From Patescibacteria group bacterium (GTDB taxonomy: Bacteria; Patescibacteriota; Gracilibacteria; BD1-5; UBA6164): a DNA stretch of 64,000 nucleotides. Positions 1,483 to 64,000 of the stretch are shown here, in pieces; within the stretch, counting starts at the first letter, position 1, and every line of letters begins with the position of its first letter. A model generated the notes under the pieces. That model searched no databases, was not told the origin of the DNA, and saw nothing but the letters and a program-made list of their open reading frames with translations. Both the position numbers and the translations under genes were made by a program. The stretch is taken from NCBI GenBank assembly GCA_034676185.1, contig JAUCCN010000002.1, positions 5,536 through 69,535 of the forward strand. Reading direction: 5' to 3'.

Positions 1483-1527
1483 AATAAACCAAGCTTTAGT
1501 AAAAATAAGGCATGGTTTATTTTTTTT
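1483..1527 (+). terminator. possible intrinsic terminator after mutS
   Basis: ATAAACCA...TGGTTTAT stem with a large loop, followed by a T8 run. Confidence 0.35.
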
Positions 1528-1553
1528 GACAAAATTTTAAAATATGGTAATAT
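1526..1553 (+). promoter_or_regulatory. sigma70-like promoter of pilin gene 1
   Basis: TTGACA (1526-1531), a 16-nt spacer, then an extended -10 TGgTAATAT. The same architecture lies upstream of the other two pilin genes. Confidence 0.45.
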
Positions 1554-1586: not shown

Positions 1587-4154
1587 ATGGATGACACAAA
1601 TACAAATCATTATAAAAGAAATAAAAAGTTATGAACAAATAAGGCTTTTACTTTAGTAGAGCTGATTATTGTTATTACTATTTTAGCTATTTTAGCAACA
1701 ATAGCTTTTATGAGTTTTCAAGGATATAACAAAAATGCAAGAGACTGAAATAGGGCAACAAGTTTAAAAACTATAGAGACAGGATTAGATTTATATAGCA
1801 TTCAAACTTGAGTGTATCCAGAACCAGAATGAACTATTTCAACTGGGAGTATTAATACCATTGATGGGGAGCAAATATTAGTAAAAAAATGAGTTATCTG
1901 AGATAATACTTCAAGAGTGGTAAGACTTAATACAACTCCAAAAGATCCATTATCACTGACAAATTATGTATATGCGACGACAAATGATAATAGAGAGTAC
2001 CAAATAGGAACTGTCTTGGAAACGTGAGTATCATATTTTCCTTTGATTAAAAATACTTATGCTGATAATTGATATCAAGCAAAAGTTCTGGGGAATTATA
2101 AATGATATATTACTTTTAATAGTTGAGGATTGATTTATATTACAAATATTCCAAGTTTGTTGTGGAGTTGAGATATTTCAGTAAACTTACTAGGAAGTGA
2201 GCCAAAATATATAATAAATAATGGGAAAAATCTTCCATATCATCCAAGTAAATGATATATATCATCAGATGAATTAGGAACTGAAAATCCAATTCAAGTA
2301 ATACAAGAAAAAACTCAAAACACAAATGCAACTCTTATAAGTATTTCAAAAACTGAGTTAGAACAAATCGTCAAAGAATTAAATCAAGATGAAAATTATG
2401 AGCTTCCTCAAGACCTAAAAAATAGTTTAAATGTCGATTCTGCACAAGATATCATCAAAAGTTTTTGAGTAAATAATACACAAGATTTTGAGAGAGTTAT
2501 ATTAGGAAACAAAAATACGACTTCTGGAAAAGTTATTCCAAAAACTCCATGAATATGTTGAGAAGCAGCAACTGCATATGCACATAATATGACAAATTTT
2601 ACAGGATGAGTAAATAATTTTTGTGAGGTAGGAGTTTTAGAAGGAAGTGAACCAATTTTTCCTACTCAATGAAATAATGTTTCATGGATATGTGTTTCTC
2701 CAGATTGAGGAGAAAGTGCTGAATGTAGCGCAAGTAGAGCAAATCCAGATGAAGAAGTAAAAGCATGTAGCGGAAAACCACTCAATTCAAAATATTTTAA
2801 TGGAACAGATGATTATTCAGTTACTGTGCCATTTTGAACTCAAGCTCCAGCTGTGACATATTCAGTAACGCCTACAGAAAATAGTTGTGAATATAGTTGT
2901 ATAAATGGCTATAGTATGAATGCATGAAGATGTAATGATTTGACACCACCAACTTGATGAAGTTTTAACATAAATGAATGAGCTACTAATACAAATGTAA
3001 CAGATATTACTCTGAATATTACTTGTGCTATTGATCAAATTGATGGAAGTGATATTCAGGTAGCTTTTGGAAATACTGCTACTCCAACAAATTGGCAAAA
3101 TTGTACTGGTTCTAAAAGTTTAGTTCATACGATTACTACTTGAGATGGAGTAAAAACAGTATATGTCAGATTTAGAGATAGTGCAGGAAATATGACTACT
3201 GCAATAAGTCAAACTATTACTTATGAAGGAGCATTGTATTATTTTACTACCCATACATTTACAAATTGTTGAATGACAGGAAGGACTTGACCAACTCTTG
3301 CAGCTTGTAGATCATCATATGCAACTAGTTGGGTTGGGAATGATAACTTTTTCAAAGAAGCTCATGCGCAATGAATTCAACTTTGGACAGTTCCGAAAAC
3401 AGGATGGTATAGTATAGATACTTATTGAGCTCAAGGAGGAACATTTCATTTTACTTGATGAAGATGAGTAAGAATGAAATGAGATTTTTATTTAGTAAAA
3501 TGAGAAAAATTAAAAATACTTGTTTGACAAAATGGAGGAAATAGTGGAGATCCTCATTGAAATGAAACTTGATGATGAGGTGGAACATTTGTTACAAATG
3601 CTTCAAACACAGCTCTAATTGTTGCTGGGGGGTGAGGGGGGGCTCCATCTAATACTTATGGAGTTAGTTGTTCTAGAGATATTTCTTCACAATGAGATGC
3701 AACTACGAGTACCTCAGGTAGAACTATTACTTGTAATACTACAGCATCTGGTTGAGCGAGTGGAAACTGATGAGTATCAAATTGATCCCACCAATGATGA
3801 GCTTGATGAGGACTGACTGGAAATTGACAGAACTGAATCGCTCATTGCTCACAACCTCAATGATGAGCAAGTTTTACGAATTGATGAGTTGGAGGACTTT
3901 GAAATTCTTGTTATGTTACTGCTAACTTTTGATGATTTTGATGATGATGATGAGGTGGATTATGATGACCATGAGCTTGATGAGGGTATTCTTGATGAGG
4001 AGTAGCATGATCATGGAGTTCATATTCAACTTATGGTGGTTGAGGAGGATCTTTTAGGGCTGCTACTTATAATTGAAATTCAGTTACGAACCCTCTCGCA
4101 ACTGAGTGAGCAAGATCTGGACACTGACAAGTTATTATTACAGCACTGAATTAA
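1587..4154 (+). CDS. Type IV pilin-like protein (prepilin N-terminus) with Cys-rich modules and a C-terminal ALK/LTK-like glycine-rich domain, 855 aa
   Basis: N-terminus MDDTNTNHYKRNKKLGTNKA/FTLVELIIVITILAILATIAF is a class III signal. The frame was checked codon by codon over long stretches and has many in-frame TGA but no TAA/TAG. The C-terminus reads FTNCGMTGRTGPTLAAC...GIQLWTVPKTGWYSIDTYGAQGG...LKILVGQNGG...LIVAGGGGG...FGGFGGGGGGG...GHGQVIITALN. The stop is TAA at 4152. Confidence 0.85.
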
Positions 4155-4155
4155 T

Positions 4156-4191
4156 AAAAAAGAACATATTTTTAAAATATGTTCTTTTTTT
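4156..4191 (+). terminator. rho-independent terminator
   Basis: AGAACATATT / AATATGTTCT hairpin (4161-4185), extended by A/T runs and followed by T6. Confidence 0.65.
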
Positions 4192-4318
4192 ATTGTAAAT
4201 ATTTCTTCTCCAAAGTAAGATTTAGGTAAGCAATAACAAAATATTTTTTGTTATTTTATAAAAATTTATATAATACAGCCGAATTAATAGATATTTTAGT
4301 ATACATAAACTAAAAAAT

Positions 4319-5407
4319 ATGAAAAAAATAATTATTCTTCACGATACTTTTTTATATAAATGATGAGGAGAAAGGCTCATTATGATGATGGCAAAAGCTC
4401 TTAAAGCTGATATTGCTTCTTGATTTTTTTCTGCTGGAAGTTTTGATTTGAGGAAAGAAGGATTTGAGGGAAAAATGATTCCACTTTCAAGCGAAATTTT
4501 TAAAAAATGATTTCGTCACCTTAAATTAAAGTTTGCGTTTTTAGTAAAAACATGATTTTTAAAAGAATATGACACTATCATTTTTTCAGGAGACAGTATT
4601 AGTGCAGTAAGAAATTGTACAAAAAATCAGAAAAAAATCTATTATTGTCATACTCCACCAAGATATTTATATGATTTGTATGAATTATATTTACAAAAAG
4701 TACCAAAATATTTACAAGGAAGTTTTAAATTGGCTTGTAAAATATTTAGAAAAATGTATGAAAGAGATATTTCTAAAATGGATTTAGTACTTACCAATTC
4801 AAAAAATACTCAAGAAAGAATTAAAAAATTTTTGTGAATCGAAGCTCAAATTCTCTATCCACCAGTAAATTTATGAGAATTTAGATTTCTATGACAAAAA
4901 GATTATTATCTCTCATTTGCAAGACTTTCAGATGCAAAAAGAGTTGATAAAATTGTGGAAGCATTTAAACAAATGCCAGAAAAAAAACTCGTGATTATTT
5001 ATGGAGAAAATGATCCACAAAAAGAAAAAATCTTTGATTTAGCAGCGTGAAGTGAAAATATAGAATTTGTAACTTTACCAGGGAATGAAGGATTTACTGA
5101 CTATGTTGGAAATGCAATTGCAACGCTTTATATTCCAGTTGATGAAGATTTTGGAATGAGTCCAGTTGAAAGTATGGCAGCTTGAAAACCAGTAATTTGA
5201 GTGAGTGATGGAGGATTAAAAGAAACTATTATTGATGGGAAAACGGGGATACTTATAGAAAAAGAAGCAAAAGTAGAAGATATTATTTCAGCAGTTCAAG
5301 AACTCACTCCTGAAAAATGTATTGAAATGAGATATGACTCTGAATACAGAGCTCGTGATTTTTCGCTTGATAGTTTTGAAGAAAAATTAAAATGATTCGT
5401 ACAATAA
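4319..5407 (+). CDS. Glycosyltransferase family 4 (GT-B, GT1/GT4-type), 362 aa
   Basis: With TGA=Gly: N-terminal MKKIIILHDTFLYKGGGERL and C-terminal [37 protein letters not shown] (an E-x7-E-like GT4 signature). The stop is TAA at 5405. Confidence 0.75.
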
Positions 5408-5438: not shown

Positions 5439-7334
5439 TTTAATAAATTTATTTACTCTATTTATAAATCATCTATAATCTTCTAATTCTCATCATTCTA
5501 ACAAAATAGCTTGTTCGTACACATATTGAATCATATCTTTTAATTTCTCTGATTTAAGATCTTTTTTAAACTCATCAAACATAGAGATAACCAGAGGACT
5601 TTCAGGATTGAGTTCAAGAATTCTTTTTTGAGTTGGAATTGCTTGTCCCATTGCTTTCATCATTTTTTCCATTTGTGGAGTAAGTCATCACTGCTTTGTT
5701 GTAAGAGCTCAAACATTTTCTCCCAGTCTTGATGTTGCTTGAACTTTTTCAAGTTTTTCACTTCAAATAGTATTTTTTATCAGTTCAAATAAATCTTTAA
5801 ATTCTTTTGTTTTTTCTTCAAAATCTTTTTTTTCTTCTTCATTTTGTAATTCAAGGTTTGAAGAGGTAATAGAAGTGATTTTATTTCCATCATATTCGTT
5901 TAAGACTCCAACAATCCATTCATCAATGGTATCAACTAAAAGTAAAACATCAATATTTTTATTTTTAAATTGGTCAATATATGGATTTGCTTTTGCTTCA
6001 GCGAGGTTTTTTGCTGTGATATAATAAATAGTTTTTATTTCTTTTTTTTCTTCGCCTTCACCTTCAGTTTTTTCAATTTTTGCTTTTTGAAGATATTCAT
6101 CAAGAGTGATTTCTTTATTTTCTAAAAGAGAATGAAATTTTACAATCCCAGCAATATCTTCTTTTAAATCTTGTTCATAATAAATTCATTCTTTTAAAAT
6201 TTTTCCGTAATTTTGTAGAAAAGTATTATAATTTTCACCATTTTCTTTGAGTTCAAATTTTAATTTTTCTACGATTTTTTTTGTCAGTCATTTTTTTATT
6301 TTTTCAAGATTGGTATTTGATTGTAACATTTCTCTTGAAATATTGAGTGGAAGGTCAGAAGTTTGAACGACTCCTGAAACAAACCTTAACCACACTGGTA
6401 ATAAATCACGAGCTTTTTCTAAAATCAATACATTTTGTACAAATAATTTTGGCCCATATTCTTTACTTGGGTCATCATTTCCACCAAACATATTTTTTTC
6501 TTGAGGAATAAAAAGAATTGATTTATAACTTATCATTCATTCTGTATTGAGATGAATGTGAGTGAGTGGTTTTTTGAAATCATAACTGAGGGAAGAATAA
6601 AATTCGTTGTATTCTTCATCTTTAATTTCAGATTTATTTTTATTCCAAATTGCTTTGGTTTCGTTTACTTGTTCCCATTTTTTTTCACTATCTTTATTGG
6701 TTTCATTTTCAACTTCTTTCATCATAATTGGCACTCAGACATAATTTGAATGTTTTTTTATCAGTTCTCTGAGTTTCCAATTCTGAGCATATTCATTTTC
6801 TTCTTTTTTGAGGAAAATTTTTATAATCGTTCCTCTTGATGTTTTATTTCATTCACTTAAATCGTATTTTCATTTTCCCTGCGAACTCCAAATAATTGAA
6901 GTTTCAGATTCGTTTGATTTTGTTTCTAGTTCAACTTTTTCTGCAACCATAAAAACAGAATAAAATCCAACTCAAAATTGTCCAATGAGATTATTTTGTT
7001 CTTTTGATTCTTTTAATTTTTCTAGGAAATCTTTGGTTCCAGATTTTGCAATCGTTCAGATATTTTTCATAACTTCTTCACGAGTCATTCAAATTCCATT
7101 ATCTTCAAGGGTAATAATTCCATTTTTTGAATCAGAGTCAATTTTTATTTCAAAATTTGAATTTTCTCATAAATAATTACTGTCAGTTAATGACTTAATT
7201 CTTGCTTTATCTATCGCATCAGAAGCATTTGAAATAAGTTCTCTTAAAAATATTTCTTTATTTGAATAAATACTATGAGTTAAGAGTTCTAAAAGTCTTT
7301 CTGTTTCCGCTTCAAATGAATATTGGTTACTCAT
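5436..7334 (-). CDS. htpG: Molecular chaperone HtpG (Hsp90), 632 aa
   Basis: [65 protein letters not shown] and [11 protein letters not shown]. The C-terminus reads ...[23 protein letters not shown]. Several conserved Gly residues are encoded by TGA. Confidence 0.95.
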
Positions 7335-7356
7335 ATTGTATTCTTTAAAAAATAAA

Positions 7357-7383
7357 TTAGCACATAAATATTGTAAGTGCTAT
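7357..7383 (-). promoter_or_regulatory. CIRCE-like inverted repeat (candidate HrcA operator) in the htpG leader
   Basis: TTAGCACAT-N9-AAGTGCTAT compared with the CIRCE consensus TTAGCACTC-N9-GAGTGCTAA (7/9 matches per arm, exact 9-nt spacer). It overlaps the putative -10. Confidence 0.5.
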
Positions 7384-7409
7384 TTTATTGAATTTTTTTT
7401 AAAAGTCAA
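7382..7409 (-). promoter_or_regulatory. sigma70-like promoter of htpG
   Basis: On the minus strand: TTGACT, a 16-nt spacer, then TAAAAT, about 50 nt upstream of the ATG. Confidence 0.4.
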
Positions 7410-7444
7410 GAAAGAGTTTTATTTATAATTTTTAGTTCGAAAAC

Positions 7445-7472
7445 TTGCAAAAAATATGAAATATGCTAAAAT
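7445..7472 (+). promoter_or_regulatory. sigma70-like promoter of pilin gene 2
   Basis: TTGCAA, a 16-nt spacer, then an extended -10 TGcTAAAAT. Confidence 0.45.
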
Positions 7473-7504
7473 TCGGAGGTACTTATTTTATAACTTTTTG
7501 AGTA

Positions 7505-9670
7505 ATGAAAATACTAAAAATAAAACCAGAAAATGTTTTAAAACATTTTCAAGGTAAAACCAAAGGTTTTACCTTAGTAGAGTTAATCATAGTAATAACT
7601 ATATTATCAATTCTTTCAGTAATAGCTTTTGTAAGTTTTAAAGACTATTCAAAAAGCTCAAGAGATGCAAATAAACTTTCAACCTTTAAAAATATAGAAA
7701 AGGGATTAGATTTGTTTGCTCTTAAAACTGGAAGTTATCCAGAACCAGAATGAGAAGTAACAGAGCTTCTTTGAAGTGGAAATATACTCCTTTTGAAAAA
7801 ATGAATTCTTTGAGAAACTATTTCACAGCAAATTCAAGCAAATAAAACATCAAAAGACCCACTTACCAATGATTATTATACTTATGCAATAACAGAAAAT
7901 AAACAAGAATTTCAGCTTTCAACATTTCTAGAAGATGACTTAGTATGATATACAAACTTACTCTTTTCAAAAATATATGCTAATAATAATTATAAAGCCT
8001 ATGTAATATGAAATTATAAACCAAAGATTTTTGAAGCAAATGGAGTGAGTTATTTTCTACCAAGTTTAATATTTAATTATAGTGGAAGTATAGTAGAGAA
8101 TAAACTAGAAATAAATCAAACAAATGCAGAAAATATATATTATGTAGTCAATAAAGAAAATAATCTGCCATATTGAGGAAATGGAAATACTCAAGTGAAT
8201 AATATAAAAACAAAAGATTTAAGTTATATAAAAGAATTAGAAAACAAATTACTAGAATGAAATGAAAATTTAATACAAGATTTAATAGCTTGAAAAATAA
8301 CAAGTGAAATTACTCCTGACCAAAAAGAAATGATTAAAAATATTATTTCATCTTCAAGTCAAAGTGCAAATAATATAGTATTTCAAAAATGTGAAGCTCA
8401 GGAAATAGATGATTATACTATTTGAGAAACACATCATGGAAATAATTATAATGCTGAAAAACAAATAAATATTACAAATGGAATTCAAGTGTACAAACAA
8501 ATATTTACTTGTAATGATGGAAGTTTTGAAAAAAGTGGAGATGAAATATTTTTATCGCCAAGTTGTGATGAAAACTATGTAGCAAATGGAAATAGTTGTG
8601 AGCTTGATACTTGTAGTTGAGAAAGACCAGATAATAGTGAACTGAACGGAACTCAAGGAACAGCTAGTTGGGCTTGGAGTCAAGAAGAAGCTTGAGTTTG
8701 TAAGTATAAATGTAGCGATTGATTTACTCATCAAAGTTGAGCTTGTAATGATATTACGGCTCCAACTTGATGAAGTTTTACTATAAATTGATGAGCTACT
8801 ACAACCAACTCTACGAGTGTAACTTTAAATATTACTTGTCCAAGTGATGTTTCAAATCCTATACAAGTTGCTTATGGAAATACTTCAAATCCTACAAATT
8901 GGACAACTTGTAATTCTTGAAATATTTCTCATACCTTAACAACTTGAGATGGAAATAAAACTGTTTATGTGAGATTTAGAGATAGTGCTAGTATCCAAAA
9001 TATGACAGGGGATATAAATAGAGAAATTATTTTAAATACATATTATAAATCCTGTTTAGAATTAAAAAATGCTTGAAATAATACGAGTTGAAAATATACA
9101 ATAGCTCCAACATGAAGTCCAATTGATGTATATTGTGAAATGACTACAAGTTGAGGTGGATGGACTTTAATTTGATGAACAAATACAAGTTGATGAAATA
9201 ATGGAGAATGACAAACATATATTGCATTTACAAACTTTTCTAATTATCAACAAAATTGAAAATTATCAAATGCACATATTTCCGATATTTTATCAACAAA
9301 TTCATGACAAAAGTGGATATGGGTACCACAAGAGGCTGTACGGTCGAATACCAATGCATATTGAAAAATTTCAAGTTTTAACTGGGAATCATGAGCGGTA
9401 TTTAATGATTTTAGAATGTATAGTTCTCCCAATTGAACAAATAGCTCTTCACATTGTTGGCATAATAACTCATATTGATTTAGATCATCTTCTCGGTCAT
9501 GAGCTAGTTGTACTGAAACAACGGTAACTCAATGACAATGTAGTTGATGATATGGAAGCACTAATAGGGTATCCTATTGTTGAACTGTTCCTTCTGGAAC
9601 TGCATGACGGTGATGTAGTGATTGTGCTCCTTGAGCATGATCAAGAGCTACATATATTTTAGTTAAATAA
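7505..9670 (+). CDS. Type IV pilin-like protein with shared Cys-rich/Ig-like module and C-terminal fibrinogen-like (YCxxxxxGGGW) domain, 721 aa
   Basis: MKILKIKPENVLKHFQGKTKG/FTLVELIIVITILSILSVIAF. The middle module CNDITAPTGGSFTINGGATTTN...VYVRFRDSA is paralogous to 2931-3195. The C-terminus reads CLELKNAGNNTSGKYTIAPTGSPIDVYCEMTTSGGGWTLIGG. The frame was checked, and the stop is TAA at 9668. Confidence 0.85.
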
Positions 9671-9768
9671 ATAAAATATATAAAATTTTAAATTCCTTGA
9701 CATATTTAAAAAATATGATTAACTTTTCAAGTATTTTAAAAATACAAATATTTTCTAATTTTTAGACT

Positions 9769-14023: not shown

Positions 14024-14704
14024 TTAATTTTCATTATTGAGCTCAGTTTGAGGGAAATTCATATTAATAGGATTTCCAAGAAATTTTGGTTTTACTTTTA
14101 AAATATCAGTACTGAAAAAAGCTTTTGTGCGAGCTAAAACTTCTCTTCTCTCATAATAATCAGCATATATATATTTTTGTAAATCTGTATGAATTCAAAT
14201 ACTTTTTATTTCTAGTTTTTCAGCAATATAAAGAGCTCTTTTGAGATGAAATTCTTGAGTAAATAACAAAGCTTTTTCTACTCAAAATATTTCTCTCGCT
14301 CTATAGAGAGTGTCATAAGTATCAAAACCAGCATAATCAAGATAAATATCATCTTTTTTTACTCATAAATTTATCAAATAATTTCTCATAGAAGTTGGTT
14401 CATCATAATGAGATTTTGAGTTATCGCCAGACACAATAATTTTTGTAATTTTTCCTTCATCATATGCTTTTTTTGCCACTTTGAGTCTATCAGCAAGAAT
14501 ATCAGAAGGGGTTCCTCATTCATATACTCTTGCTCAAAATACAATTCCAACTTCATAACCAGTTATATTATCTTCTCAAGAAAATATTTTGCCTTTTGAG
14601 AAAGAAAGCACGTATAAATTTATAAGAATAACGAGAAAAATTCCAATAAGAACTCATAAAAATCACAGAAAAAATATTTTTTTGAATGAGAATTTATTTT
14701 GCAT
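14024..14704 (-). CDS. sanA: SanA/YdcF (DUF218) family protein, 226 aa
   Basis: An N-terminal TM segment, then GIVFGARVYEGGTPSDILADRLKVAKKAYDEGKITKIIVSGDN...DYAGFDTYDT. Confidence 0.7.
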
Positions 14705-16181
14705 ATATTTGAAGGGATTTATTTTTTAAATTATCTAAAAACATTTGTAGTATTTCTTTGTCTTTTTCTTTGAATGAATTTCAAGAAAGTATATTATTTA
14801 ATTTATTTTCTAAGAGAAGAGTTTTTTCTGGAGAAAGTTTGAACATTTTTAAAATTATTTTTTCTAATTCATTTCTGGAATATCAAATATCAGGGAATAG
14901 ATAAGTAATATCTTGGCATAAAATTTTTCCATATTCAGTGCTATAAAAACTAAAGACATCAAGTCATTGTTCTATATGTAAATAATCATAAAATTTTGGC
15001 ATAATGAAATTATTTACTAGTAAATTATAATCATCATTTTCATTTTTTATAAAAGTATAATATTCATTTGAATTATTGTGTTTATTAGAAAATAGTGAAA
15101 ATGTATCAGCTCCATTATTGAGATATCTTTCATCAATATTTTTTGCTCTCAAAACTTCTTTTCCATTTATTTCTAAAGTGTCAACTCAAAGAATTTTATT
15201 TTTCTTTACGATAAATATATCTCCATTTGGTTTTTTTATAATGGTTTTTATTTGCAAGTCATCATCATATGAAATACGAATTTTTCCATTTTTTATAAAA
15301 GCATAATTATCCCAATCAGTAAGAATAAAATAAAAATTATCATCATCTTTAAAAACAATATCAAAATAATTATGAGTTTTTCCTGAAAAAGAACCTATTT
15401 TTTCAGTATTTTTATAAAAATCATATTCATTTTCTCCCACTGTTTTGAGAGTATATAAATATTTTCCACTTGGAGAAAATTTTGAATAATAAATATTTTC
15501 ACCGATTTCTTTTCCATTTAGAAAAAATGTTTCTTTCCCAGATTTTGCAGAATATCAGATAAATGAAACATTTTTTCCATCATTTGATATATGCACATCT
15601 CTCACATATGCATCAAGTTTTTCAAATAGAATGTTTCCATCTTTTATTACTTTTATTGAATTACTTATTTGATACGCATCAATAAAGAATTTTTTATTTT
15701 CAGAAAAATACCTGGTATGAAATTCAAAATCTTCTACAGGGATGAGTATATCATTGGTAAGCATAAGATTTTTTTGGTTGATAATTACTTCAAGAGCATA
15801 TTTTTTTTCATATTCGTCATAAAAAGCTGACCAATGATTTATATATTCTGCGCTGAGAAGTTTTTGTTTATTTTTGTAGAGGTCTATTTTTTTCCCATTG
15901 TCAATTCCATAGAGAATGTTTCCTTCATATTCCATATAAATATAATTTATTCCAGATTGGTAGAGTTCTTCATTTTTATAGAGATTATTTTTTTCTAAAT
16001 AAAAATTATAATTTCCTTTGTCATAAAAAACAGGGGGTTGTTTTGTTTCTTTTGTTGTATTTATTTCACATTTTTTTGTTCCATAATAAATGGGATATAT
16101 TATTTTTTGTTCACTTGCAAGTGTCGAAATCGTGAAAGAAAAACATACTATGCTGAATAAAAATGTTATTATTTTTTTCAT
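14694..16181 (-). CDS. Hypothetical secreted repeat protein, 495 aa
   Basis: Three same-frame track ORFs (15555-16181, 15186-15440 and 14964-15152) join through TGA=Gly. It has signal peptide MKKIITFLFSIVCFSFTISTLA and recurring Y/F-x-NGK motifs. Its stop overlaps the sanA start by 11 nt. Confidence 0.65.
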
Positions 16182-17659: not shown

Positions 17660-19375
17660 TTAAAACCCACTTTGTAAATCAATCATTTTTTTATAATATC
17701 AGTTTGATTTTACTAAATCATTATGACTTCATCTTTCAATAACAATTCATCATTCAAATACTATAATATCATCAGCATTTTTAACTGTTTGAAGTCTATG
17801 AGCAATAATTAATACAGTTCTTCAAATAAATAATTTCTCAAATGAATTTGAAATACTTTCCTCAGAAAAACTATCTAAAGCAGCAGTAGGTTCGTCTAAT
17901 ATAATAATTTTTGGATCTTTCACAAATAATTTTGCAATAGCAAGTCTTTGTTTTTGTCATCAACTTAATCTAACTCATTTTTCTCATATTTCTGTATTTA
18001 ATCAATCTTTAAAATTATATATAAAACTACACTCAGCAAGTTTTATACAATCTTCTATTTTTTTATCATTAATTAAGTTCTCATCAATTCAATAAATTAA
18101 ATTTTCCAAAATAGTTCCATCAAATACCGAAGGCTCTTGTGTAAGATATCAAATCTCTTTATAATAAGATTTTAAATTAATTTTATTTATAGGTTGTCAA
18201 TCAATAATAATATTTCAATCATTTGCTTTTAAAAATCAAGATATAAGTTTTATTAATGTAGTTTTTCAACTTCAACTTATTCAAACAAAAGCAGTTTTTT
18301 TTCATCCTATTATATTAAGTGAAAAATCTGAGAAAACTTTATTTTCTTCATAAGAGAAACTTATATTTTTTATTTCAATATTTCAATTTTTATAATCAAA
18401 TTTTTCTCAACTTTCGAGTCAGATAATCTCTTTTGTAGTATCAAAAAAGTCCCAAACTTTTTCAATGGAATAAAAATTTTTTGTAAAATTCTTAAAAAAA
18501 GATATAGAATTATTTAAAACTTCTTTTAAAATTCAAAGCATAAGAAAAATTCATACTATTTGAGATATTCATATATTTAATTTAAATGACAAAATTAAAA
18601 CTGATAAGTACACAATAAAAATTACTATTTCAGGAATAATAAACATAGAGAATAAAAAATTATTTAAATGATTATTAAAAGAAATAATATCATCAGTGTG
18701 TTTATTTAAAATGTTTACTTCTCTAAATATTTTATTGTTTTGTAAAATTTCAAATTTTGACATCACTATTTTTACTAGTTGTCTATCATAGTTTATTTTT
18801 GCTTCTGTGACTCAAATTCTATATTTAATAGCCTTATCGTTTAAATATACAAGCAAAATATTTATAATAATGAAAATTATAAAAAAAAATATTATATATA
18901 AGTTTCATAAATCTTTTAAAATAACGAAAGTTGCTATAATTGATATAAATATTTTTGTTATTACTCAGATTGAATCAACTAAAAAATTAGACCAATTTTC
19001 AAATCATTTTGATAAAATTGAAATTATTTTTCAAGTTCATATATTTTCTATATTTGTATTATCAAGTTTATTAAACTGAAGCATATATTTTGTATGAAGT
19101 ATCTTAATTGTACTATAATATAAATCAGCCCATGACCATCTTCTGGTAAAAAAAGAAAATATAAAATAAATAATATTAAATATCAAAAAATAAATAATAA
19201 ATGATTTTAGTGTATCTACTTGATTATTTTGAAATATAAAAACAAAATTTTGTATAAAGTAAACATTAATAACTAAAAAGGCAGATCATAATAATCATGA
19301 AATAATTGCTTTTAGAAAATTAAATTTATTTTGGTATAACGGTTCAAAAAACCTATAAAATTTGTTTTTTTGCAT
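17660..19375 (-). CDS. ABC exporter, fused permease/ATPase (MsbA-like type I exporter), 571 aa
   Basis: Six-TM N-terminal half. Walker A GISGSGKTT (Gly codons are TGA), signature LSGGQKQRLAIA, Walker B IIILDEPTAALD and an H-loop IIAHRL. There is no C39 peptidase domain. Confidence 0.85.
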
Positions 19376-19457
19376 ACTTTAAATAAAGGTAAAACATTAT
19401 TAATTTAATAATAATATATTTTAATACTATTGAAAGTAAAATATTTTTTATAAAATA

Positions 19458-20387
19458 TTATATTTTAATTAAATTTCAAATTCTCTTATCTAGTTCAAAA
19501 TGATTAGGATGAAAGTGTCAATATCAATTACAAGGAGTGAAAGTTATTTCTCAAAAATAAATTTTATTGTTAACAAAATAAAAATCTACTCTTACAAAAG
19601 GGAATCAAGTTGATAATTTTTTTGCATATTCAGTCATAATATCTAAACTTTTGGGCATTATAAAATCTCATTCATATAATCACATTCTACCAATATAAAA
19701 ATCAAGTTTATTTCAACTTAAATCAGACATAAATCTTTTATGTTCGTTATATCTTCATATATCTACTTGTATAAAATCTGGTTCTCAATTAAAACAAAAA
19801 AATTTATAATCTACTAAATCAGGTTGTGAAGGATCTTCTAATAATTCTTCAACAATAATTCTTCTCTCAATATATTTATATTGAAGTTCTCTTCAAATCC
19901 TTGATAAATCTTGATTTAGCCATTCATTTAATTGATTTATTATCTCATTAATATTAATTTTTTCTTTATCTTTAATAATAATATTAAATCCACATCAATG
20001 ATTACATTTTATTACAAATTTACTAGGTAATTGTCAAAAAGGTATATCATAAGGATTTTTTCACTCCCAAAGAAGTTTTGGTAATATTTCATCTCAAATT
20101 TTCTCTGTAATATACTCTCTTACTTTATATTTATCCGCTAACTGTGAAAATATTCAACCAAATTGAGTTATTTTAAATACATTAATTTTTTCATTAAAAG
20201 TTTGAGGATTTCTTAAATTTGGAATTTTTCAAAATTCTTGAAAATATTGCATAGTAATAAATAATTTATCAGGAATTAGTTCTAATAGACTATTTTTAAA
20301 CCTTTTTAATGATTTTGTTACTCATCTAGAAAATCAATTATTTAAATTTTCTTTTAAACTAGCGGGTAAAAATATATTGTTTTTCAT
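19458..20387 (-). CDS. TupA-like ATP-grasp family protein, 309 aa
   Basis: KYKVREYI...LPSKFVIKCNHGCGFNIII...DYKFFCFNGEPDFIQVD...FPFVRVDFYFVNNKIYFGEITFTP. The reading frame was checked for in-frame TAA/TAG over 19458-19800. Confidence 0.7.
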
Positions 20388-20397
20388 AAAATAAACA

Positions 20398-21414
20398 TTA
20401 AGGAATATTTCATAAGTTAATATTAGTTCATAATTCTAACTGATGTTCTTTAACTAATCTTATAGCAGTTTCTAAATCATTACTTGCAATTTTTAATAAT
20501 TTATCAATATTTATAGAGTTTCCAATAATAAACCATCATCTTTCTTTAATTATTTGTTTAGCTAAATCTATGCTATTTAAACTAGCAACATATAATAAAT
20601 CTAATAATCTACTAGGTTTAGATAAAAAAACTATTTCGGCTATTTCTTTAGCATTTAGATTAGGAAAATATTTTTGAAAAATTTCTGGATATAATTGGAT
20701 AGTTTTTAAAATCATTTCTTTTTCATCAATATTTCATCAAGATAATCTTGTTGTTGTTGAATGTTCTCTATATAAATAGTAAGGAAAATTAATAAATCAA
20801 ATATCATTAGTTTTTCATTGTTTTAAACGAGTATTCAATAATCAAATTCAAGCTGACCAATCTTGCCATTTTTTTATTTCCTCATTATAAATTCAGTCCT
20901 TGACAGCATCTTCCAGTCTATATACCATAAAAGTTGAGACATGATGTTTTTTTACAACCAAATCTTCCCTCAATTTATAAGGAGATATAGTATATCAATT
21001 GAATCATCAAAACATAATACAAGAAGAATGTACAAATCAAATATTTTGATTTTGAAGAATATTCATAGCTTTTTCGGAATAGCTTCTTTGATTATTTGAA
21101 AAATTATTATTTAACATATCATCTGCATCTAACATATGAATATAAGGATATTGAGCAATATTTAATCACAAATTGCGTGCATGTTGAGCTCATTTATTTT
21201 CTATATTTCTAATTATTTTTAATCATTTTTGTCAATCAAAAGAGTCCAATACTTTTTCAGTTTCTCATTTATCATTTGATCAGTCATCAGAAATAATTAT
21301 TTCAAATAATATTCAGTTTAAATGTTCTTGAACTGATTTTACTGCTTCAGATAAGTATATTCAGGCATTATAACAAGGAATTATAACACTTATTCATTTT
21401 GATTCTAAAGACAT
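20398..21414 (-). CDS. Glycosyltransferase family 2, 338 aa
   Basis: ISVIIPCYNAGIYLSEAVKSV...EIIISDDGSND...MLDADD (a DxD-type motif). Confidence 0.8.
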
Positions 21415-21427
21415 AAATTATAATAAG

Positions 21428-22762
21428 TTATATTTTAAAACTAATAGAATTACCAGGAGTTAAAATTGAGAGTGATAACTTTTCTAATATTTTCATTGTT
21501 AATTCATGGTCTGATAATTTACTTTTTTCTTCTTTTCACTCTAACCAATTTTTTATTAAAATATATTTTCATTTTCATTCAAAATCTGGATAGGATTTTT
21601 TCTTATAATAAAAATCGTCACCAATCAAATTTTTATTTGATCTAAACAATACATCAGCATTGTATCTTAAGTAATTTTCTGGTTTTTTCATCATATGAGC
21701 ATGCACTGAGTATAGTGTAGATAATTGAACTTCAACATCAGTACAAGGTAAACGTCAGTTTTTATTATATTCTGAAAAGTCAAGACTTGCCCAATCTCTA
21801 CAACAAGGAGTTGTATGTTCAAAAGCAAGAGTTCATAACATTATAACATTATTTTTAGAATTTTTTAGCATAAAATTTGTTACAATATCAGTTTCTCAAT
21901 AATCAAGTAAATTATCAGTATTTAAAAAATTATTATCTAAATCTCATTTAAAATTATTATAAGCATTTTTAGGTATTTTTGAACTTTGGTCAGTAGGATA
22001 AGATACAAATGAATTGATTGTTAATTTAAGTTCATCATTGAATAAATTTTTGTCTATTTGTAAACATTGAGCAAAGACATCTAAATAATGATATGCTCAA
22101 TGATTTAATACTCAAAATCAATATTTATATGGATGATCTTCTCTCGAAATAAATTCATTATATAGATTCCACACTCATGAACTAGTACGAATATGAAAAG
22201 ATGTTATAGGAATTTTATATTTTTCAACTTTTAGTTTTATATTATCTAAAATATCATAATTAAAAATTTCATGGTATCTAGCTCAACTCATTACAGAAAA
22301 GTTTCATTTTTGTTTTTTTGCTTTTTCTATAAGATTTTGCATTTTTGATTCATATAACTCTGGCGCAAATTTTCAATTAATTATTGGTGTAATAATTGGT
22401 TTTTCCACTAAGCAATCAATGGTTTTATCCAAACAATATTCTAAATATCATTCATGAAACCTAGGGTCAGTTGATATAAAAACTTTTAAATCATATTCAC
22501 TTTTTTGTAATTCTTGTATTATTTCATCAAATTCTTTTATATTATTTATATCTCTTCAAGTATTATTATTTTTTAAATAAAAATTAATAATAGGCTTTGT
22601 AGTCAGTTTATTTATTTTATTATCTAATATTTCTTTTTGATATATTAAATCTATAGTAGCATATCAATCAATAATTTTATTATTAATATAATCTTCAATG
22701 AATCTCATGTATTTTCATGTTGCTACAGATCAAAATCAAACAATAAGTAAAAGTTTCTTCAT
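21428..22762 (-). CDS. Gfo/Idh/MocA-like NAD(P)-dependent oxidoreductase, 444 aa
   Basis: N-terminal Rossmann segment MKKLLLIVGFGSVATGKY and the family motif HEGYLEYCLDKTIDCLVEKPI. The C-terminal half is divergent. Confidence 0.55.
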
Positions 22763-22838
22763 AATACAAAAATTTTAAAATAATATATTTTAAACTATAA
22801 AAGTTCTGAATAAGAAAAATACTGAAAAAATAAAGAAA

Positions 22839-30114: not shown

Positions 30115-30162
30115 TATTTTAGATTACTTTTTAATAATAAAAACGTGTCTAAAATAACAGAA

Positions 30163-31485
30163 ATGATAGGGAATTTAACAAAAAAATCTGAAAATAAAAA
30201 ATTATCAAGCTCTTGAGTAGATGACTTATTTTCTGTGTCTGGGGGTGTTTCAGTATGACTCAAATGATCACATCTTTCTATGAATCAAATACAAAAAGAA
30301 GATGATGAAAATATTATTTCTTTTGTAAATGATTTATTTTTAAGCGCGATACAAAAATCAGCTTCTGATATCCATATTGAACCCAGCGATAGAGAAATAA
30401 GAATTCGCTTGAGAATTGATGGTAATTTTATTAATTATAAAAGTTTAGAACTCAAAAAAGCAAATTCTCTTATTGCCAGAATAAAAATTATGGCATATCT
30501 TAGAATTGATGAGCAAAGATTACCTCAAGATGGAAAAATTAATTTTAATCTTTTTTGAGGAAAAAGTATAGACTTAAGAATATCTGTTTTACCTAATATT
30601 TATGGAGAAAAGGTGGTAGTGAGAATTCTTAAAAAAGAAGAAAAACCAGGGGAATTAAAGAATCTTTGAATTTTACCTTATAATATGGTGAAAATAAAAA
30701 AACATCTTTCTGATACTCATGGAATGATTTTAGCTGTTTGACCAACTTGAAGTTGAAAATCAACCACTCTTTTTTCTCTATTAACTCAATTTGATGCTGA
30801 AAAAAACAATATTTCAACATTAGAAGATCCAGTAGAATACAGAATTCCTGGAGTCAATCATACTCAAATCAATCCTGCCATTTGATTTAATTTTGCTGAT
30901 GGACTTAGAGCATTACTCAGACAAGATCCAGATATTATTATGGTATGAGAAATTAGAGATGAGGAAACAGCAAAACTTGCAATAGAGGCATCAATTACAG
31001 GACATTTAGTATTTTCAACTCTACATACTAATTCTGCGGTTCATACTCTATCAAGATTAGTAAATTTATGAGTTGACCCACTTTTGCTTTCTTCAAGTTT
31101 AAGGATGATTATCTCTCAAAGACTGGTGAGAAAGCTTTGTTCGAAATGTAGAGAAAAATATAAACCTGATGAAAAAGTAAAAAATATACTCGTTGGAAAG
31201 GTAGGGAAATTTATGAAAAATAAGGAAGAAATATTTTTATATACAGCAAAAGATTGAGGATGTGCATATTGTAATCATACTGGATATAAATGAAGACTTT
31301 GAATTTATGAAGTATTAGAAATGAATGAAAAAATAGAACAACTTCTTCTTCAAAATGCTTCTCGTACACAACTTGAAATTCAAGCAATTTGAGATGGAAT
31401 GGTAACTATAAAAGAGGATGCATTTCTAAAAGTAGTAATGGGGGATACATCGGTAGAAGAAGTACTTAGTGTGCTTTGAAATTAA
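30163..31485 (+). CDS. pilB: Type IV pilus assembly ATPase PilB/GspE family (short form lacking the long N-terminal domain), ~440 aa
   Basis: ASDIHIEP. Walker [12 protein letters not shown] at 30736-30768, where all three Gly are TGA. Also [33 protein letters not shown] and the tetracysteine CSKC...CAYC. The start is uncertain (ATG at 30163 or GTG at 30145). Confidence 0.85.
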
Positions 31486-40323: not shown

Positions 40324-40325
40324 TT

Positions 40326-47482: not shown

Positions 47483-48565
47483 ATGCAATGAACTATTAGA
47501 CCAGATTATATTTTGAGAGATCAACTTTTACAAGTTATGATTGATAACGAAGGAAGTGATATGTATATTACTGTTGGCACGTATCCCGCAATAAAAATTT
47601 GATGAGATATTGTAAAAATAGATGAGTGACTTACTATACTCACTTGGAAAGATACTATGGAATTTACTCAATCAATTGTAACTGAAAAACAACATGAATA
47701 TTTAGTAAAATCGAAAAATCTTGATTTTGCATTTTCTTTCTCTGGAAGAAGATTTAGAGTAAATGTTTCGTTTCAGATGTCAAATTATATGGTAGTTATT
47801 AGACTGCTTGGAAATAAAATACCAACAGTTGATGATTTATGACTTCCAGCAATTTACAAAGAAATTACGAAACTTTGACAATGATTGATCCTTGTAACAG
47901 GACCAACAGGAAGTGGAAAATCAACGACTCTAGCAGCTATGATAAATTTTATTAATCAAAATTATAATAAACATATTATCACGATTGAAGATCCGGTTGA
48001 GTATCTTCATCCGCATGGAAAATCTATTGTAGAACAAAAAGAAATTGGAAAGGATATTCCGGATTATAAAACAGCACTTGCTTGAGCTATGAGACAAAAT
48101 CCACAAGTTATTTTATTTTGAGAAATGAGAACCACTGAAGAAATTGAAATGGCTTTAACACTTGCTGAAACGGGACATTTAGTGTTTTCTACTCTCCATA
48201 CTCGTTCTGCATATCAAACGATTTCAAGAATTATTGATAGTTTTGAATCTGGTCAACAAAATCAAATCAGACTTCAACTTGCTGATAGTTTGGTAGGAGT
48301 ATTTTCTCAAAGACTCCTGAAAGCGAGTGATGGAAGTGGAGTAAAATTAGTAAAAGAAATTCTTACTCGTACTTCGGCAGTGGTAAATTTAATTAGAGAA
48401 AATGATCTCCATCAGATTCCTTCAGTGATGCAAATGTGATCAAGAGATGGAATGCAAATTTTAGAAAAAGATATTATTGAACTTATCAATTTATGATATA
48501 TTTCAGAAGAAGAATGACTCAAATATGCAAATAATCCTAAAATTGTAAAAGAATGAATGAATTAA
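47483..48565 (+). CDS. pilT: Type IV pilus retraction ATPase PilT, 360 aa
   Basis: GSDMYITVG, Walker [25 protein letters not shown]-like [25 protein letters not shown] and AVVNLIRE. Confidence 0.9.
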
Positions 48566-49223: not shown

Positions 49224-50306
49224 TTATACATTATTTAATAATTTTTGTAATACATCACTAAAAAAAAGTACTCCATATATTCATAAAGCAAGAAATGGGC
49301 CAAAAGGCATTTTTGTATCTAATGGTACTTTTGAAGATTTGATTCATAAAACTTTTTTTATTTTATGTAAAAACTTTTTTTGCTGCTTATAATATTCTCT
49401 TGTTTTTGTGTAGATAATAATTCCAATTCATACAATACTTCCTAAAAAATAGGAAAGTAAAACTGCATGAAAGCTAAGGCTTACTCAAGCTATAAGTCAC
49501 ATTAAAATTCCAATTCTTAGATCACCTCACCCCATCCAACTTCCTCCAGAAAAGAGTATTTGTAAAAATAAAAATAAAAATACAAAAAAACTCCCAAGTA
49601 TAGCACTTCCTATACTTGATTGTTCAAAATCTATGTACAAGAAATATTTTATAAAAATAAGAATTCCTCATAAACTAAGAAGTATGAGTATATCGTATAT
49701 TTCTTTTAATCATTTGAGCATAATGAGATAAAAGCTTCCAATCATAAGAACTCAAAAACCTATGAACATAAATAATTCTCCCTGAGAAAAATTACTTGAA
49801 TATCCAGGAAGGATTGAAATAATATGAAAATCTGGAATGAGGCTTTGGATTGCAATAGTAATAAAAGTAATACTTATTAATCCAAATAAAATACTATCAG
49901 GAATTTCCAAATAGAGAATATCGTAGAAAACATATACAATAGTAAAAAATGAAAAAAGTAAAAAAAATCATAAAGAATATATTTCTTTCATATTTCATTC
50001 TAAAAGAAGCGAAAAATCAATGAGAAAATATCCAACGAGCATAAAAAGTAATCCAGTTGCCATTTCCAGTATAGGATATATAAAACTAATTTTTTCTTTG
50101 CAATATCTACATTTTCCACCATTTCATAAAAATGAAAAAATAGGAATTAAATCAAGTATTCAAAGAGTATGTTTGCATTTTGGACATTCACTTCTTCCTC
50201 AAATAATTCAAGATTTTTTATGTTTGAGTCTATGAGTAACTACTGACGAAAAACTTCAAAATAAAGTTCAAAATATAAAAAGATAGAGGTAGAATAATAT
50301 TTCCAT
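49224..50306 (-). CDS. pilD: Prepilin peptidase (A24 family leader peptidase/N-methyltransferase PilD), 360 aa
   Basis: Zinc-binding CPKCKHTL...GKCRYCKEKISFIYPILE, a multi-TM body, GGGDLRIG and MPFGPFLALG. Confidence 0.85.
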
Positions 50307-62572: not shown

Positions 62573-64000
62573 ATGAAAACTATAAATACAAAAAAGAAAT
62601 CTCTTCCTACATCTTACTGAACGAAAAGAGAAGAAAAAGTTTGTTTTTCTATGAATGTAAAGAAAGGAATTTGAAAATGATTTACTCTCGTTGAACTCAT
62701 TATTGTCATTACTATTTTGGCAATTTTAGCAACGATTGCTTTTATTTCATTTAAAAACTATTCTTGAAATGCTAGAGATGGAAATAGAATAGCAACTGTA
62801 AAAAATCTTCAAAGTGGTTTAGATCTCTACCAAATTAAAGTATGAAATTACCCATTTCCAGACGGTGATCAGATTCTTACTGGAACCATAAATGATCAAC
62901 CTCTTGCCTATAAATGAGAAATAGGAAATAATATAGTAAGCCAAATCAAGTTTTCTAAACTTCCAAGTGATCCAGAAGAATCAAATCAAAAATATGTATA
63001 TGGAATTACCTCCAATAAACAACAATATCAAATCTGAACTGTATTAGAAAACCCAGTGAGTTATGAACCTTACTTTATAACTCCAACATATGCAAATACA
63101 AATTCATATAAAGCAAAAGTAGAATGAAATTATAAATGATATATTTTATTTTTAAGTTGAGGGACAACGTGGATAGCTAATATTCCAAGTCTTATCTATA
63201 ATTTTACTGGAACATTAAGTGGAAGTGGAATAGATTTACTCAATCAAGCTCAAACATACTATTCAGTAAATACTTGAAATAATCTTCCATATCAACTGAA
63301 GAATGCAAAAAATATAAATCAAGAAGAAAGTGATCAAGTCCTTAAAAATAAAACCTGAAATACAGAAGCAAAGCTAGTAACTCTATCAAAAGAAGAATTA
63401 TTAACATATTTTAATAGTGAGGAGGAAACTCCAACTCTTACAACCTGAATAACTAGCGGAGAATTATTATGAAGTTTTTGAGTAAATAATAAAGAAAGTT
63501 TAGAAATTCTTGTTACTTGAAATGCATCTCCACTAACTCCACCAGCCCCAACTACCGTAAACGGAACTTGTGGAAGTGCCAATAAAATATACGAACATAC
63601 AGATACAACATATTGAACTGGTACATTTTGTGAGAGCGGAATTTCAAATCCAGCAACTCCAGTGTTTCCAACTGAATGAACCCCAACTACTTGGACTTGT
63701 GAATGAAGCGGAACTCCTACTTGAACTACTGCAAACTGTACTGCTAATAAGGCATCTTCCCTAACAAGTGTAAGCCAAACTCAATGTACATCAGCTTGAT
63801 GGGCTTGGATATCAGAGGCAAATGATGTATACATTTGAGATACGAGATGAAACTGATTTTGTATTTCACCAACTATAGATATATGAGACTTAGCTGGACA
63901 ATGAATATCATGGAATGGATGGGGAAATCTTTCATCAAATATAAATTATAATGGATGGAATACAGATACCTGGGCAAGTACTATCAGAGATAGTGATGTC
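62573..64000 (+). CDS. Type IV pilin-like protein 3 (partial, runs off the window)
   Basis: ...MNVKKGIGKG/FTLVELIIVITILAILATIAF. An alternative start is ATG at 62651. It shares GNYKGYI..F.SGG...IANIPSL and the Cys motif CGSANKIY...FCESG...WTCEGSG..ANCTA with pilin 1. The frame is open to position 64000. Confidence 0.8.

Follow-up and report, generated by a model that had tools for sequence, protein, structure and literature searches.

A predicted modular type IV pilin of Gracilibacteria with a hypervariable head homologous to the TNF-like plus glycine-rich domain of ALK and LTK

Background

Some type IV pilins carry large additional modules, and for two of them in Streptococcus sanguinis, PilB (which bears a vWA module) and PilC (which bears a lectin module), adhesin function has been shown by experiment in work which also surveyed more than 1,200 modular pilin proteins in 264 architectures and predicted their location at the pilus tip (PMC8179133). 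The tables of that survey include pilins with PF12810, the Pfam family of the glycine-rich region of the animal receptors ALK and LTK: Dataset S1 lists two proteins with the architecture IPR012902-PF12810 and one with IPR012902-PF12810x3, beside 8+2 proteins with the fibrinogen architecture IPR012902-(IPR013545-)IPR002181, and Dataset S2 lists one PilY1 with PF12810 (PMC8179133). Here we describe a gene of this kind, g2, in a stretch of 64,000 nucleotides from a Patescibacteria group bacterium, very small and probably dependent on a host (GenBank assembly GCA_034676185.1, contig JAUCCN010000002.1, positions 5,536 to 69,535 of the forward strand; the whole of this stretch is called the window below). 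The pilin plus PF12810 architectures were tabulated in the survey without discussion, and a full-text literature search for "PF12810" returned an unrelated fungal genome paper only, a PF12810 pilin being described nowhere in the searched literature. The architecture is therefore already known from the 2021 table, and what is new here is the strain-level hypervariability of the head and its sharing across lineages.

Within the Patescibacteria, TM7x (Nanosynbacter lyticus) has two large minor pilins, of which PilX2 carries a beta-propeller and PilX1 a jelly-roll; deletion of PilX2 halved host binding while filaments remained, single minor-pilin deletions were mostly without phenotype, the thin pilus with the large minor pilin made no contribution to competence, and the C-terminal domains of the PilX proteins are said to be diversifying (PMC11623550). 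In the myocyanophage Pam3, tail fibre gp24 ends in a distal TNF-like and glycine-rich module at its receptor-binding end, with a conserved glycine stem and hypervariable tip loops which are proposed to set host specificity (PMC9608196). Host recognition by uncultivated Patescibacteria is an open question, and pilus adhesins have experimental support in Saccharibacteria only. The g2 locus offers a concrete candidate for a specificity determinant in Gracilibacteria, as its head alone is replaced between near-identical strains, and the head alleles could be used as strain-to-host markers or in binding assays.

Results

The head of g2 is homologous to the ALK/LTK domain

Read with genetic code 25, g2 is a single open reading frame (ORF) of 855 amino acids (aa) predicted to encode a prepilin leader, a pilin module, a stalk and a C-terminal head, with the following features.

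1526..1553, + strand: promoter-like site, TTGACA, a 16-nucleotide (nt) spacer and TAATAT with an upstream TG, 34 nt 5' of the start codon
1587..4154, + strand: g2, predicted to encode a modular type IV pilin of 855 aa when read with table 25; its stop codon, TAA, is at 4152-4154
1587..1646, + strand: class III leader, aa 1-20, MDDTNTNHYKRNKKLGTNKA, with predicted cleavage at Ala20/Phe21
1647..1718, + strand: hydrophobic alpha1-N helix, FTLVELIIVITILAILATIAFMSF, aa 21-44, with Glu at mature position +5 as read from the sequence
1728..2006, + strand: putative pilin globular module, GspG/T2SSG-like, aa 48-140 (Pfam T2SSG E 0.038; TIGR01710 E 3e-8, below cut-off)
2289..2498, + strand: small helical stalk module, aa 235-304 (from residues 129-198 of the AlphaFold2 model of the orthologue P0126; predicted local distance difference test, pLDDT, 83-94)
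2514..2885, + strand: Cys-rich stalk segment, aa 310-433, with Cys at 324, 346, 369, 380 and 394
2892..3224, + strand: Ig/PKD-like beta-sandwich, aa 436-546, directly N-terminal to the head and common to the paralogue g5
3231..4151, + strand: C-terminal head (TNF-like and glycine-rich, or TG, domain), aa 549-855, with 81 Gly codons, 50 of them TGA
3301..4050, + strand: hypervariable block within the head, about aa 572-822, from DNA comparison with syntenic strains
4152..4195, + strand: terminator-like hairpin followed by a U-run, immediately 3' of the stop (-14.2 kcal/mol, z -5.9)

The original prediction, made from the letters of the window, had read g2 as a pilin fused to a domain resembling that of ALK and LTK motif for motif. 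The 855-aa ORF, the motifs that it quoted and the DNA at 3930-3959 (TGA TGA TTT TGA TGA TGA TGA TGA GGT GGA, in frame) were all correct, and the span which it gave to the domain, 3235-4154, was essentially right in that the head lies at 3231-4151 and the stop codon at 4152-4154.

A phmmer search with aa 549-855 against all PDB chains matched the ectodomains of ALK and LTK and Caenorhabditis elegans SCD-2 only, the best E value of 5e-10 covering eight ALK/LTK chains. Composition bias was high in the Gly-rich half of the head (53.8), and when all TGA residues were masked, at positions mostly opposite Gly in ALK, a match remained in the TNF-like part, which makes up the first ~107 residues, with an E value of 4e-9 and a bias of 0.4. 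A profile built from the head and 64 relatives found ALK/LTK in the PDB at E 6.8e-37 in two stretches, the TNF-like part scoring 89.8 bits (bias 0.1) and the Gly-rich part 37.7 bits and reaching the terminal GHG.V.I strand, so that the proposed motif-for-motif resemblance was borne out by single-sequence and profile searches alike. For shuffle controls the head was scored on a family hidden Markov model (HMM) built without the window sequence; it gave 401 bits, compared to -20 bits for the best of 1,000 global shuffles and 10 bits for the best of 1,000 block shuffles, and the match survived the masking of all Gly (161 bits, bias 0.0). An artefact of Gly composition as the source of the resemblance to ALK was thus ruled out. 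In a Pfam scan, PF12810 matched aa 604-854 over near the full length of the profile (positions 6-243 of 243; E 2.1e-4) at 21.8 bits, below its gathering cut-off of 24.5 bits, which two relatives exceed, P0031 at 39.7 bits and P0076 at 30.7 bits.

The structure of the domain was approached through models of two relatives of g2. The closest relative, P0001, has a head 57% identical to that of g2 (BLASTP, 99% of the head) and a model with pLDDT >90 across the domain, and the orthologue P0126, which is correctly translated in the database, is 95% identical in the stalk and 68% in the head and has a model with pLDDT 85-97 in the TNF-like part. Foldseek searches with either model gave 21 significant PDB matches each, and every one was an ALK/LTK TG structure (E values down to 3.5e-16, TM-score for the target, TMt, 0.70-0.71, root mean square deviation 4.3-5.8 Å); the next match stood at E 1.1 for P0001 and, for full-length P0126, at E 1.8e-3 to a PKD domain lying on the Ig-like module. 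The structural comparison which the original prediction had called for thus returned, on the models of relatives, significant matches to ALK and LTK only, in line with the significant sequence and profile matches. Long Gly-rich stretches of the P0001 model have pLDDT >90 and are neither helix nor strand by DSSP; the glycine-rich region of ALK forms polyglycine-II helices (PMC12227593). These searches confirm, at the level of sequence, that the predicted head is truly homologous to the TNF-like plus glycine-rich domain of ALK/LTK and, via the models of its relatives, suggest that it would adopt the TG fold. The head is 27-31% identical to ALK/LTK, its nearest relatives being bacterial at 50-59% identity; a recent capture from animals was ruled out by these identity levels together with the size of the family, described below.

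The head is hypervariable on a conserved chassis

DNA of the window was compared with that of two syntenic relatives, L004 and L005, both of which have g2 orthologues syntenic with the window. Identity was 98-100% at 1351-2850 and ~90% at 2851-3300, fell to 41-74% at 3301-4050 and was back to 98-100% from 4051 (L005) or 4201 (L004) on, and blastn gave no alignment at all for 3537-4116 (L004) and 3594-3955 (L005). The contig of a related metagenome-assembled genome (MAG), L001, stops at window position 3207, 24 nt 5' of the head, which fits an assembly break in a polymorphic segment. The only relative that is a GTDB representative is JAUCDK010000029.1. In L005 (GCA_050252855.1, JBFWKD010000004.1) the g2 orthologue is split by a frameshift (5672-6007 / 6001-8211) into an N-terminal ORF of 111 aa, which holds the prepilin motif, and a second piece of 736 aa; the gene may be a pseudogene or have a phase-variable site here, or the frameshift may be an error of sequencing.

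The proteins gave the same picture. Within the lineage of g2 (P0121-P0126) the stalk proteins are 93-97% identical and the heads 55-69%, and P0128 and P0130 have stalks 100% and heads 67% identical, while between lineages with stalks only 47% identical the heads reach 74% (P0124/P0128) and 79% (P0125/P0130). This shows a phylogenetic discordance between stalk and head, with head types common to distant stalk lineages. Each of eight head alleles retains 17-18 of the 18 invariant and 34-42 of the 42 near-invariant positions of the family, and the alleles differ in loops, in indels and in the positions of the later Cys residues; they are thus predicted to be intact folds with diversified surfaces.

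A search with the pilin module and stalk (aa 1-548) uncovered a large Gracilibacteria family built on one chassis, on which the heads include fibrinogen-C, FISUMP, LamG lectin, LRR/BspA, SPRY, COLFI and LCCL domains; TG heads occur in 10 of the best 120 stalk relatives. A six-frame table-25 translation of the 64-kb window contained no second TG domain, and no silent head copy, template repeat or DNA repeat of the head was found in the window. The differences between heads are a divergence of the whole segment with indels and not adenine-specific substitutions. Allelic replacement from a population-wide pool suits this pattern better than a local cassette or a diversity-generating retroelement (DGR).

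TGA encodes glycine throughout the window

The window as a whole is recoded, as its ORFs of at least 100 aa total 22,953 aa with TGA read as sense compared to 2,073 aa with TGA read as a stop; g2 itself holds 74 in-frame TGA codons, and breaks into fragments if these are read as stops. The HtpG protein of the window, with TGA masked as X, matched Escherichia coli HtpG at E 7e-135 and has TGA at invariant glycines of the GHKL motifs (DNGxGM, GTIAKSGT and GQFGVGFYS) and never at Trp. In the alignment of the head with 64 homologues, Gly makes up 83% and Trp 0.1% of the 50 columns in which the head has TGA, much as Gly makes up 79% of the 31 GGN columns, and Trp makes up 66% of the 4 TGG columns. 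The GHKL glycines of HtpG and the Gly-rich TGA columns of the head prove that TGA is Gly and not Trp in the window, i.e. genetic code 25. MAGs of Candidatus Altimarinota (Gracilibacteria) and of the "Patescibacteria group" are the nearest relatives that have a name, and with code 25 these place the organism in Gracilibacteria / Candidatus Altimarinota.

The poly-Gly tracts of the head were also said to be encoded by runs of TGA, and 50 of its 81 Gly codons (62%) are indeed TGA; this is, however, nothing special to the head, as TGA is the commonest Gly codon of the window (708 of 1,272, or 56%), and a particular preference for TGA within the poly-Gly tracts was ruled out. Such runs are the ordinary codon usage of any Gly-rich protein here. 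Codon choice differs strongly between some neighbouring genes of the window: in the five consecutive genes g15-g19 (17660-25256, - strand), which include an ABC transporter, glycosyltransferase-like genes and valyl-tRNA synthetase, 86-96% of the Gly codons are TGA at a G+C content of 0.20-0.25, whereas in the neighbouring g12 (14694-16181) TGA makes up merely 20%.

In the public protein collection the g2 product is present solely as a translation with TGA as Trp (code 4), P0121 ("WWFWWWWWGG..."), which is unnamed and has PF07963 alone recorded, and the correct table-25 translation was not found among ~15 billion public protein sequences. The Trp content of the 120 best stalk relatives suggests that 109 of them are mistranslated in the same way, and the proteins P0140 and P0141 are likewise stored as TGA=Trp translations in which Gly tracts have become Trp tracts. 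This mistranslation is systematic in a major protein collection, where it turns Gly tracts to Trp and conceals the domain.

Prepilin signal, stalk and flanks of g2

The N-terminus of g2 is a genuine class III (prepilin) signal, as had been proposed. The leader of 20 residues is basic and its processing site reads KA/FTLVE (that is, KA/FTLVELIIVITILAILATIAFMSF); PF07963 matches aa 18-41 at 27.3 bits (gathering cut-off 21.2) and TIGR02532 matches the N-terminus at 26.7 bits (cut-off 16.3). Ala at position -1 is usual in this pilin family, being found in 72 of 117 members, and the DNA of the alpha1-N helix is 100% identical in L001, L004 and L005. The weak T2SSG and TIGR01710 matches further along would fit a divergent pilin core.

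In the stalk, the helical module (aa 235-304) has no family match. Model confidence is low for the Cys-rich segment, whose conservation extends to paralogues and to stalk lineages that are distant. The Ig-like module is modelled in P0126 with pLDDT 76-91 and resembles PKD domain 4xed (Foldseek TMt 0.74, E 1.8e-3); its match to Pfam Big_13 is weak, and its DNA is ~72% identical to that of g5 at 8744-8988.

The promoter-like site matches at 10 of 12 positions, which is weak evidence as such sites are no commoner in the region than in shuffled sequence (14 found compared to 17.6 expected). The hairpin after the stop codon is much stronger, none of 200 shuffles folding as well; a scan for consensus terminators missed it as its stem has too few G-C pairs. 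With this weak promoter-like site and strong terminator-like hairpin, g2 is probably monocistronic. Directly downstream lies a GT1-family glycosyltransferase gene (4319-5407, + strand) whose position is conserved in L004 and L005, and a part for it in pilin glycosylation is conceivable.

Pilus machinery and paralogous pilins in the window

The window also encodes pilus machinery and two further pilins of the same design.

7445..9670, + strand: g5, a modular pilin of 741 aa paralogous to g2, its head being fibrinogen-C (GGGWT) (PF00147 33.8 bits, gathering cut-off 22; NF040941 52.8 bits, cut-off 30)
30145..31485, + strand: PilB/GspE-type assembly ATPase, g25 (PF00437 T2SSE, 417 bits)
47483..48565, + strand: PilT-like retraction ATPase, g43, 360 aa (PF00437, 142 bits)
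49224..50306, - strand: prepilin peptidase PilD, peptidase A24, g45 (PF06750 94.9 bits; PF01478 23.8 bits)
62651..64000, + strand: third paralogous modular pilin (P0141, 723 aa at full length), with an alternative start at 62573 and extending past the window end

The proteins of g5 and g2 have the leader, the pilin module and the Ig-like module in common and differ in their heads. The g5 gene is absent from the syntenic L004 and L005, the indel at 7434-9685 being a 2.25-kb strain-specific insertion or deletion. The head of the third pilin has no Pfam family match. The three large pilin paralogues are scattered and monocistronic, and in another relative, L006, a few kb separate the orthologous architecture from genes for T2SSF and T2SSE. 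Elsewhere in the window, inspection by eye suggests a type III-like restriction-modification system in two adjacent large genes (40314-42176 and 42444-45353, + strand), one resembling a DNA methyltransferase and the other a helicase/restriction subunit.

The TG domain is widespread in prokaryotes and phages

An exhaustive profile search returned 12,306 clusters (at 50% identity) at E <=1e-3 and 3,709 at E <=1e-30. Many of these clusters are giant proteins with multiple matched stretches, and the partner domains of TG include fn3, Ig-like, MopE, FG-GAP and the Flp-type pilin leader. The last is seen in P0008 (GAB5388772.1, from an alphaproteobacterial MAG), in which a TG domain is fused to a Flp-type pilin leader, and P0267, P0341 and P0354 are giant TG proteins (3,377-4,907 aa) with type IV pilin leaders; together these suggest that the TG fold has been mounted on type IV filament anchors repeatedly.

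Among phage families the head matched phrog_22713 (E 5.8e-33) and also phrog_7388. It matched 55 viral structure models, which come from cyanophages (syn9 "Gp38" among them), from phages of Caulobacter and of actinobacteria and from giant viruses; "receptor protein-tyrosine kinase" is the automatic annotation of many of them. In two annotated phages the TG gene lies amid structural or collagen-like fibre genes. TG is thus a very widespread prokaryotic and phage module, of which ALK is an outlier and not the model. The original prediction had spoken of a receptor-like domain on a pilus; the homology to ALK/LTK on which that wording rested is real, but with 12,306 clusters and 55 viral structure matches the term "receptor-like" misleads. 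The placing of the ALK/LTK ligand-binding fold within a very large microbial and phage family, found at the ends of fibres and pili, bears on the origin of the animal domain.

Discussion

The analysis supports the original interpretation of g2 in a more ordinary setting, with a common domain, an architecture already tabulated and normal codon usage. We consider that g2 is probably a modular type IV pilin located at the pilus tip, whose TG head is an adhesin contacting the host or prey. Its processing, its incorporation at the pilus tip, its adhesin function and its ligand are the parts that we infer, by precedent from S. sanguinis PilB, TM7x PilX2 and phage Pam3 gp24. In this proposal the prepilin peptidase encoded in the window would cut the 20-residue leader at Ala20/Phe21 and the alpha1-N helix would then lead to insertion of the protein into a type IV filament by the PilB-driven machinery, where the ~800 extra residues on the pilin would allow only a tip position or the role of a rare subunit. 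The stalk, with its helical, Cys-rich and Ig-like modules, would present the 307-aa head, predicted to have the TNF-like and polyglycine fold of the ALK/LTK ligand-binding region, in which an invariant glycine scaffold would bear loops that are swapped wholesale between strains. This replacement of loops on an invariant scaffold suggests that the head is the part that binds the ligand and determines specificity, most probably as an adhesin in contact with the cell surface of host or prey, with PilT retraction then drawing the cells together. The paralogous pilins, with one chassis and differing heads (fibrinogen-C and others), would make up a repertoire of adhesins. A host-contact role for the head, already put forward in the original prediction, is strengthened by the strain-level hypervariability.

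Several observations weigh against this proposal. Neither a small major pilin nor a canonical minor-pilin operon was found beside g2, and the closest curated pilin models, GspG and ComGC, are both below cut-off, so that the filament type is left unassigned by the models. The head falls short of the PF12810 gathering cut-off, and the evidence for its fold comes from models of the relatives P0001 and P0126 and not from the sequence of g2. The head alleles are saturated (41-74% nt identity), beyond the use of ratios of non-synonymous to synonymous substitution (dN/dS), and their hypervariability could be due to evasion of phages or predators instead of host choice. The head is also not the only variable stretch, as the MutS-like gene g1 (102-1481), upstream of g2, has in its 3' part (151-1350) only 69-89% DNA identity to three relatives, which reach 93-100% in the adjoining sequence; the locus is a mosaic beyond the head, and the head is by far its most divergent part.

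The prepilin signal might serve for export and membrane anchoring only, making g2 a surface adhesin or fibril which is not part of a retractile pilus and whose head would still bind an external ligand, comparable to archaeal bindosome-type proteins or pseudopilins. We think this unlikely. It would account for the lack of an adjacent major pilin or minor-pilin operon, for three large paralogues that are scattered and monocistronic and for the best curated resemblances being to the pseudopilin GspG and to ComGC, below cut-off; against it, the window holds genes for PilB, PilT and PilD, the architecture in L006 lies near T2SSF and T2SSE, and Glu+5 and the alpha1-N helix, which are required in filament assembly, are perfectly conserved. 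That single minor-pilin deletions in TM7x mostly had no phenotype (PMC11623550) also leans towards an anchored adhesin. A further explanation, which we hold to be quite improbable, is that the head varies as a target, being recognised by phages, predators or competitors and kept diverse by negative frequency-dependent selection for escape, while its own ligand could be invariant or the head mainly structural. Extreme allelic divergence on a conserved scaffold and head types common to different lineages are typical of escaping surface antigens, and homologous domains do occur in phages, so that the module circulates between phages and cells; yet the best-studied homologous or analogous modules bind by their variable glycine-rich tip (PMC9608196), and the sister pilins bear known binding domains (lectins, fibrinogen-C, LRR), which speaks for the role of a probe.

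We would give very little weight to a place for g2 at the tip of a competence-type (Com) pilus, where the head would capture DNA for nucleotide scavenging. The N-terminus does have a weak ComGC-like match, and DNA uptake has often been proposed for candidate phyla radiation (CPR) pili (PMC11452946, PMC8080830), but DNA is invariant as a ligand and would not favour hypervariable heads, the thin pilus of TM7x with its large minor pilin does not contribute to competence (PMC11623550), and g2 has no DNA-binding family matches. Least credible of all, to the point of being negligible, is that the resemblance to ALK is an artefact of Gly composition or the result of a recent capture from animals: the HMMER bias in the Gly-rich half and the sub-threshold PF12810 score might be read in that way, but the TNF-like half alone matches almost free of bias, the Gly-masked head far outscores every shuffle, and the bacterial relatives are much closer to the head (50-59% identity) than ALK/LTK (28-31%), within a family of thousands of clusters, many in phages.

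Beyond the reading of g2 as a tip adhesin, we offer a broader and more tentative idea, to which we lean less than even-handedly, that the TG fold was originally a prokaryotic and phage receptor-binding module. On Gracilibacteria pili it may serve as an exchangeable and hypervariable tip, the allele of which would set the host or prey, and recombination would pass alleles between strains and lineages, perhaps also to and from phages, in the manner of phage tail-fibre tips.

Comparison with known systems

The TG domain of ALK/LTK (7NX1, 7LRZ, 7MZY and 7NWZ; PF12810) is homologous to the head over the entire domain. Motifs common to both are FTxCG..G..GPT...C with both Cys, GIQ.W.VP and ILVGQ.G, and further along GGGGG.T(F/Y)V, (I/V)AGGGGG, GGFGGGGGG and GHG.V.I; the Cys pattern beyond the first pair differs between the head and ALK/LTK, and also among the bacterial alleles. 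Unlike the receptors, g2 is without an EGF-like module, a transmembrane helix or a kinase and has the domain on a pilin instead; no kinase family was matched in g2, and the protein stops one residue past the Pfam TG match (aa 854 of 855). On this predicted domain content g2 is not an ALK-family receptor, and we know of no ALKAL-type cytokine in bacteria.

Among phage proteins the head is like Pam3 gp24 in joining a conserved glycine scaffold to hypervariable segments, and the Salmonella phage S16 gp38 adhesin is another receptor-binding tip of the group with TNF-like and/or polyglycine domains. These phage tips belong to trimeric fibres needing a chaperone, and next to g2 there is no fibre chaperone gene, the downstream neighbour being the GT1 glycosyltransferase. 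Neither Pam3 gp24 nor S16 gp38 was among the 21 significant PDB matches of the P0001 and P0126 models, and as all 21 were ALK/LTK the family of the g2 head would be closer to ALK than to the solved phage tips.

Variation confined to an exposed part is familiar from the allelic and cassette variation of Neisseria pilE/pilS and from receptor-binding proteins diversified by DGRs, which are common in CPR bacteria. The variability of g2 is likewise confined to the predicted exposed part, with conserved flanks as possible recombination anchors; unlike these cassette and DGR systems, the 64-kb window lacks a silent head copy and a template repeat. Like TM7x PilX1 and PilX2, g2 would be a type IV pilus subunit of Patescibacteria whose C-terminal domain is large; those proteins are from another phylum, Saccharibacteria, have other head folds and lack the canonical PilD signal, which g2 has.

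The closest likeness in design is to the modular pilins (Raynaud et al. 2021), as g2 has an N-terminal class III signal and a pilin module followed by a bulky C-terminal module, and under the definition used for them (an IPR012902 N-terminus and at least one domain that is not of type IV pili) it has both an Ig-like module and a TG head to show. Unlike the modular pilins of S. sanguinis, g2 has a ~400-aa stalk and not a short loop between pilin and head, it is written in code 25, and its head is hypervariable and appears to be exchanged among stalk lineages.

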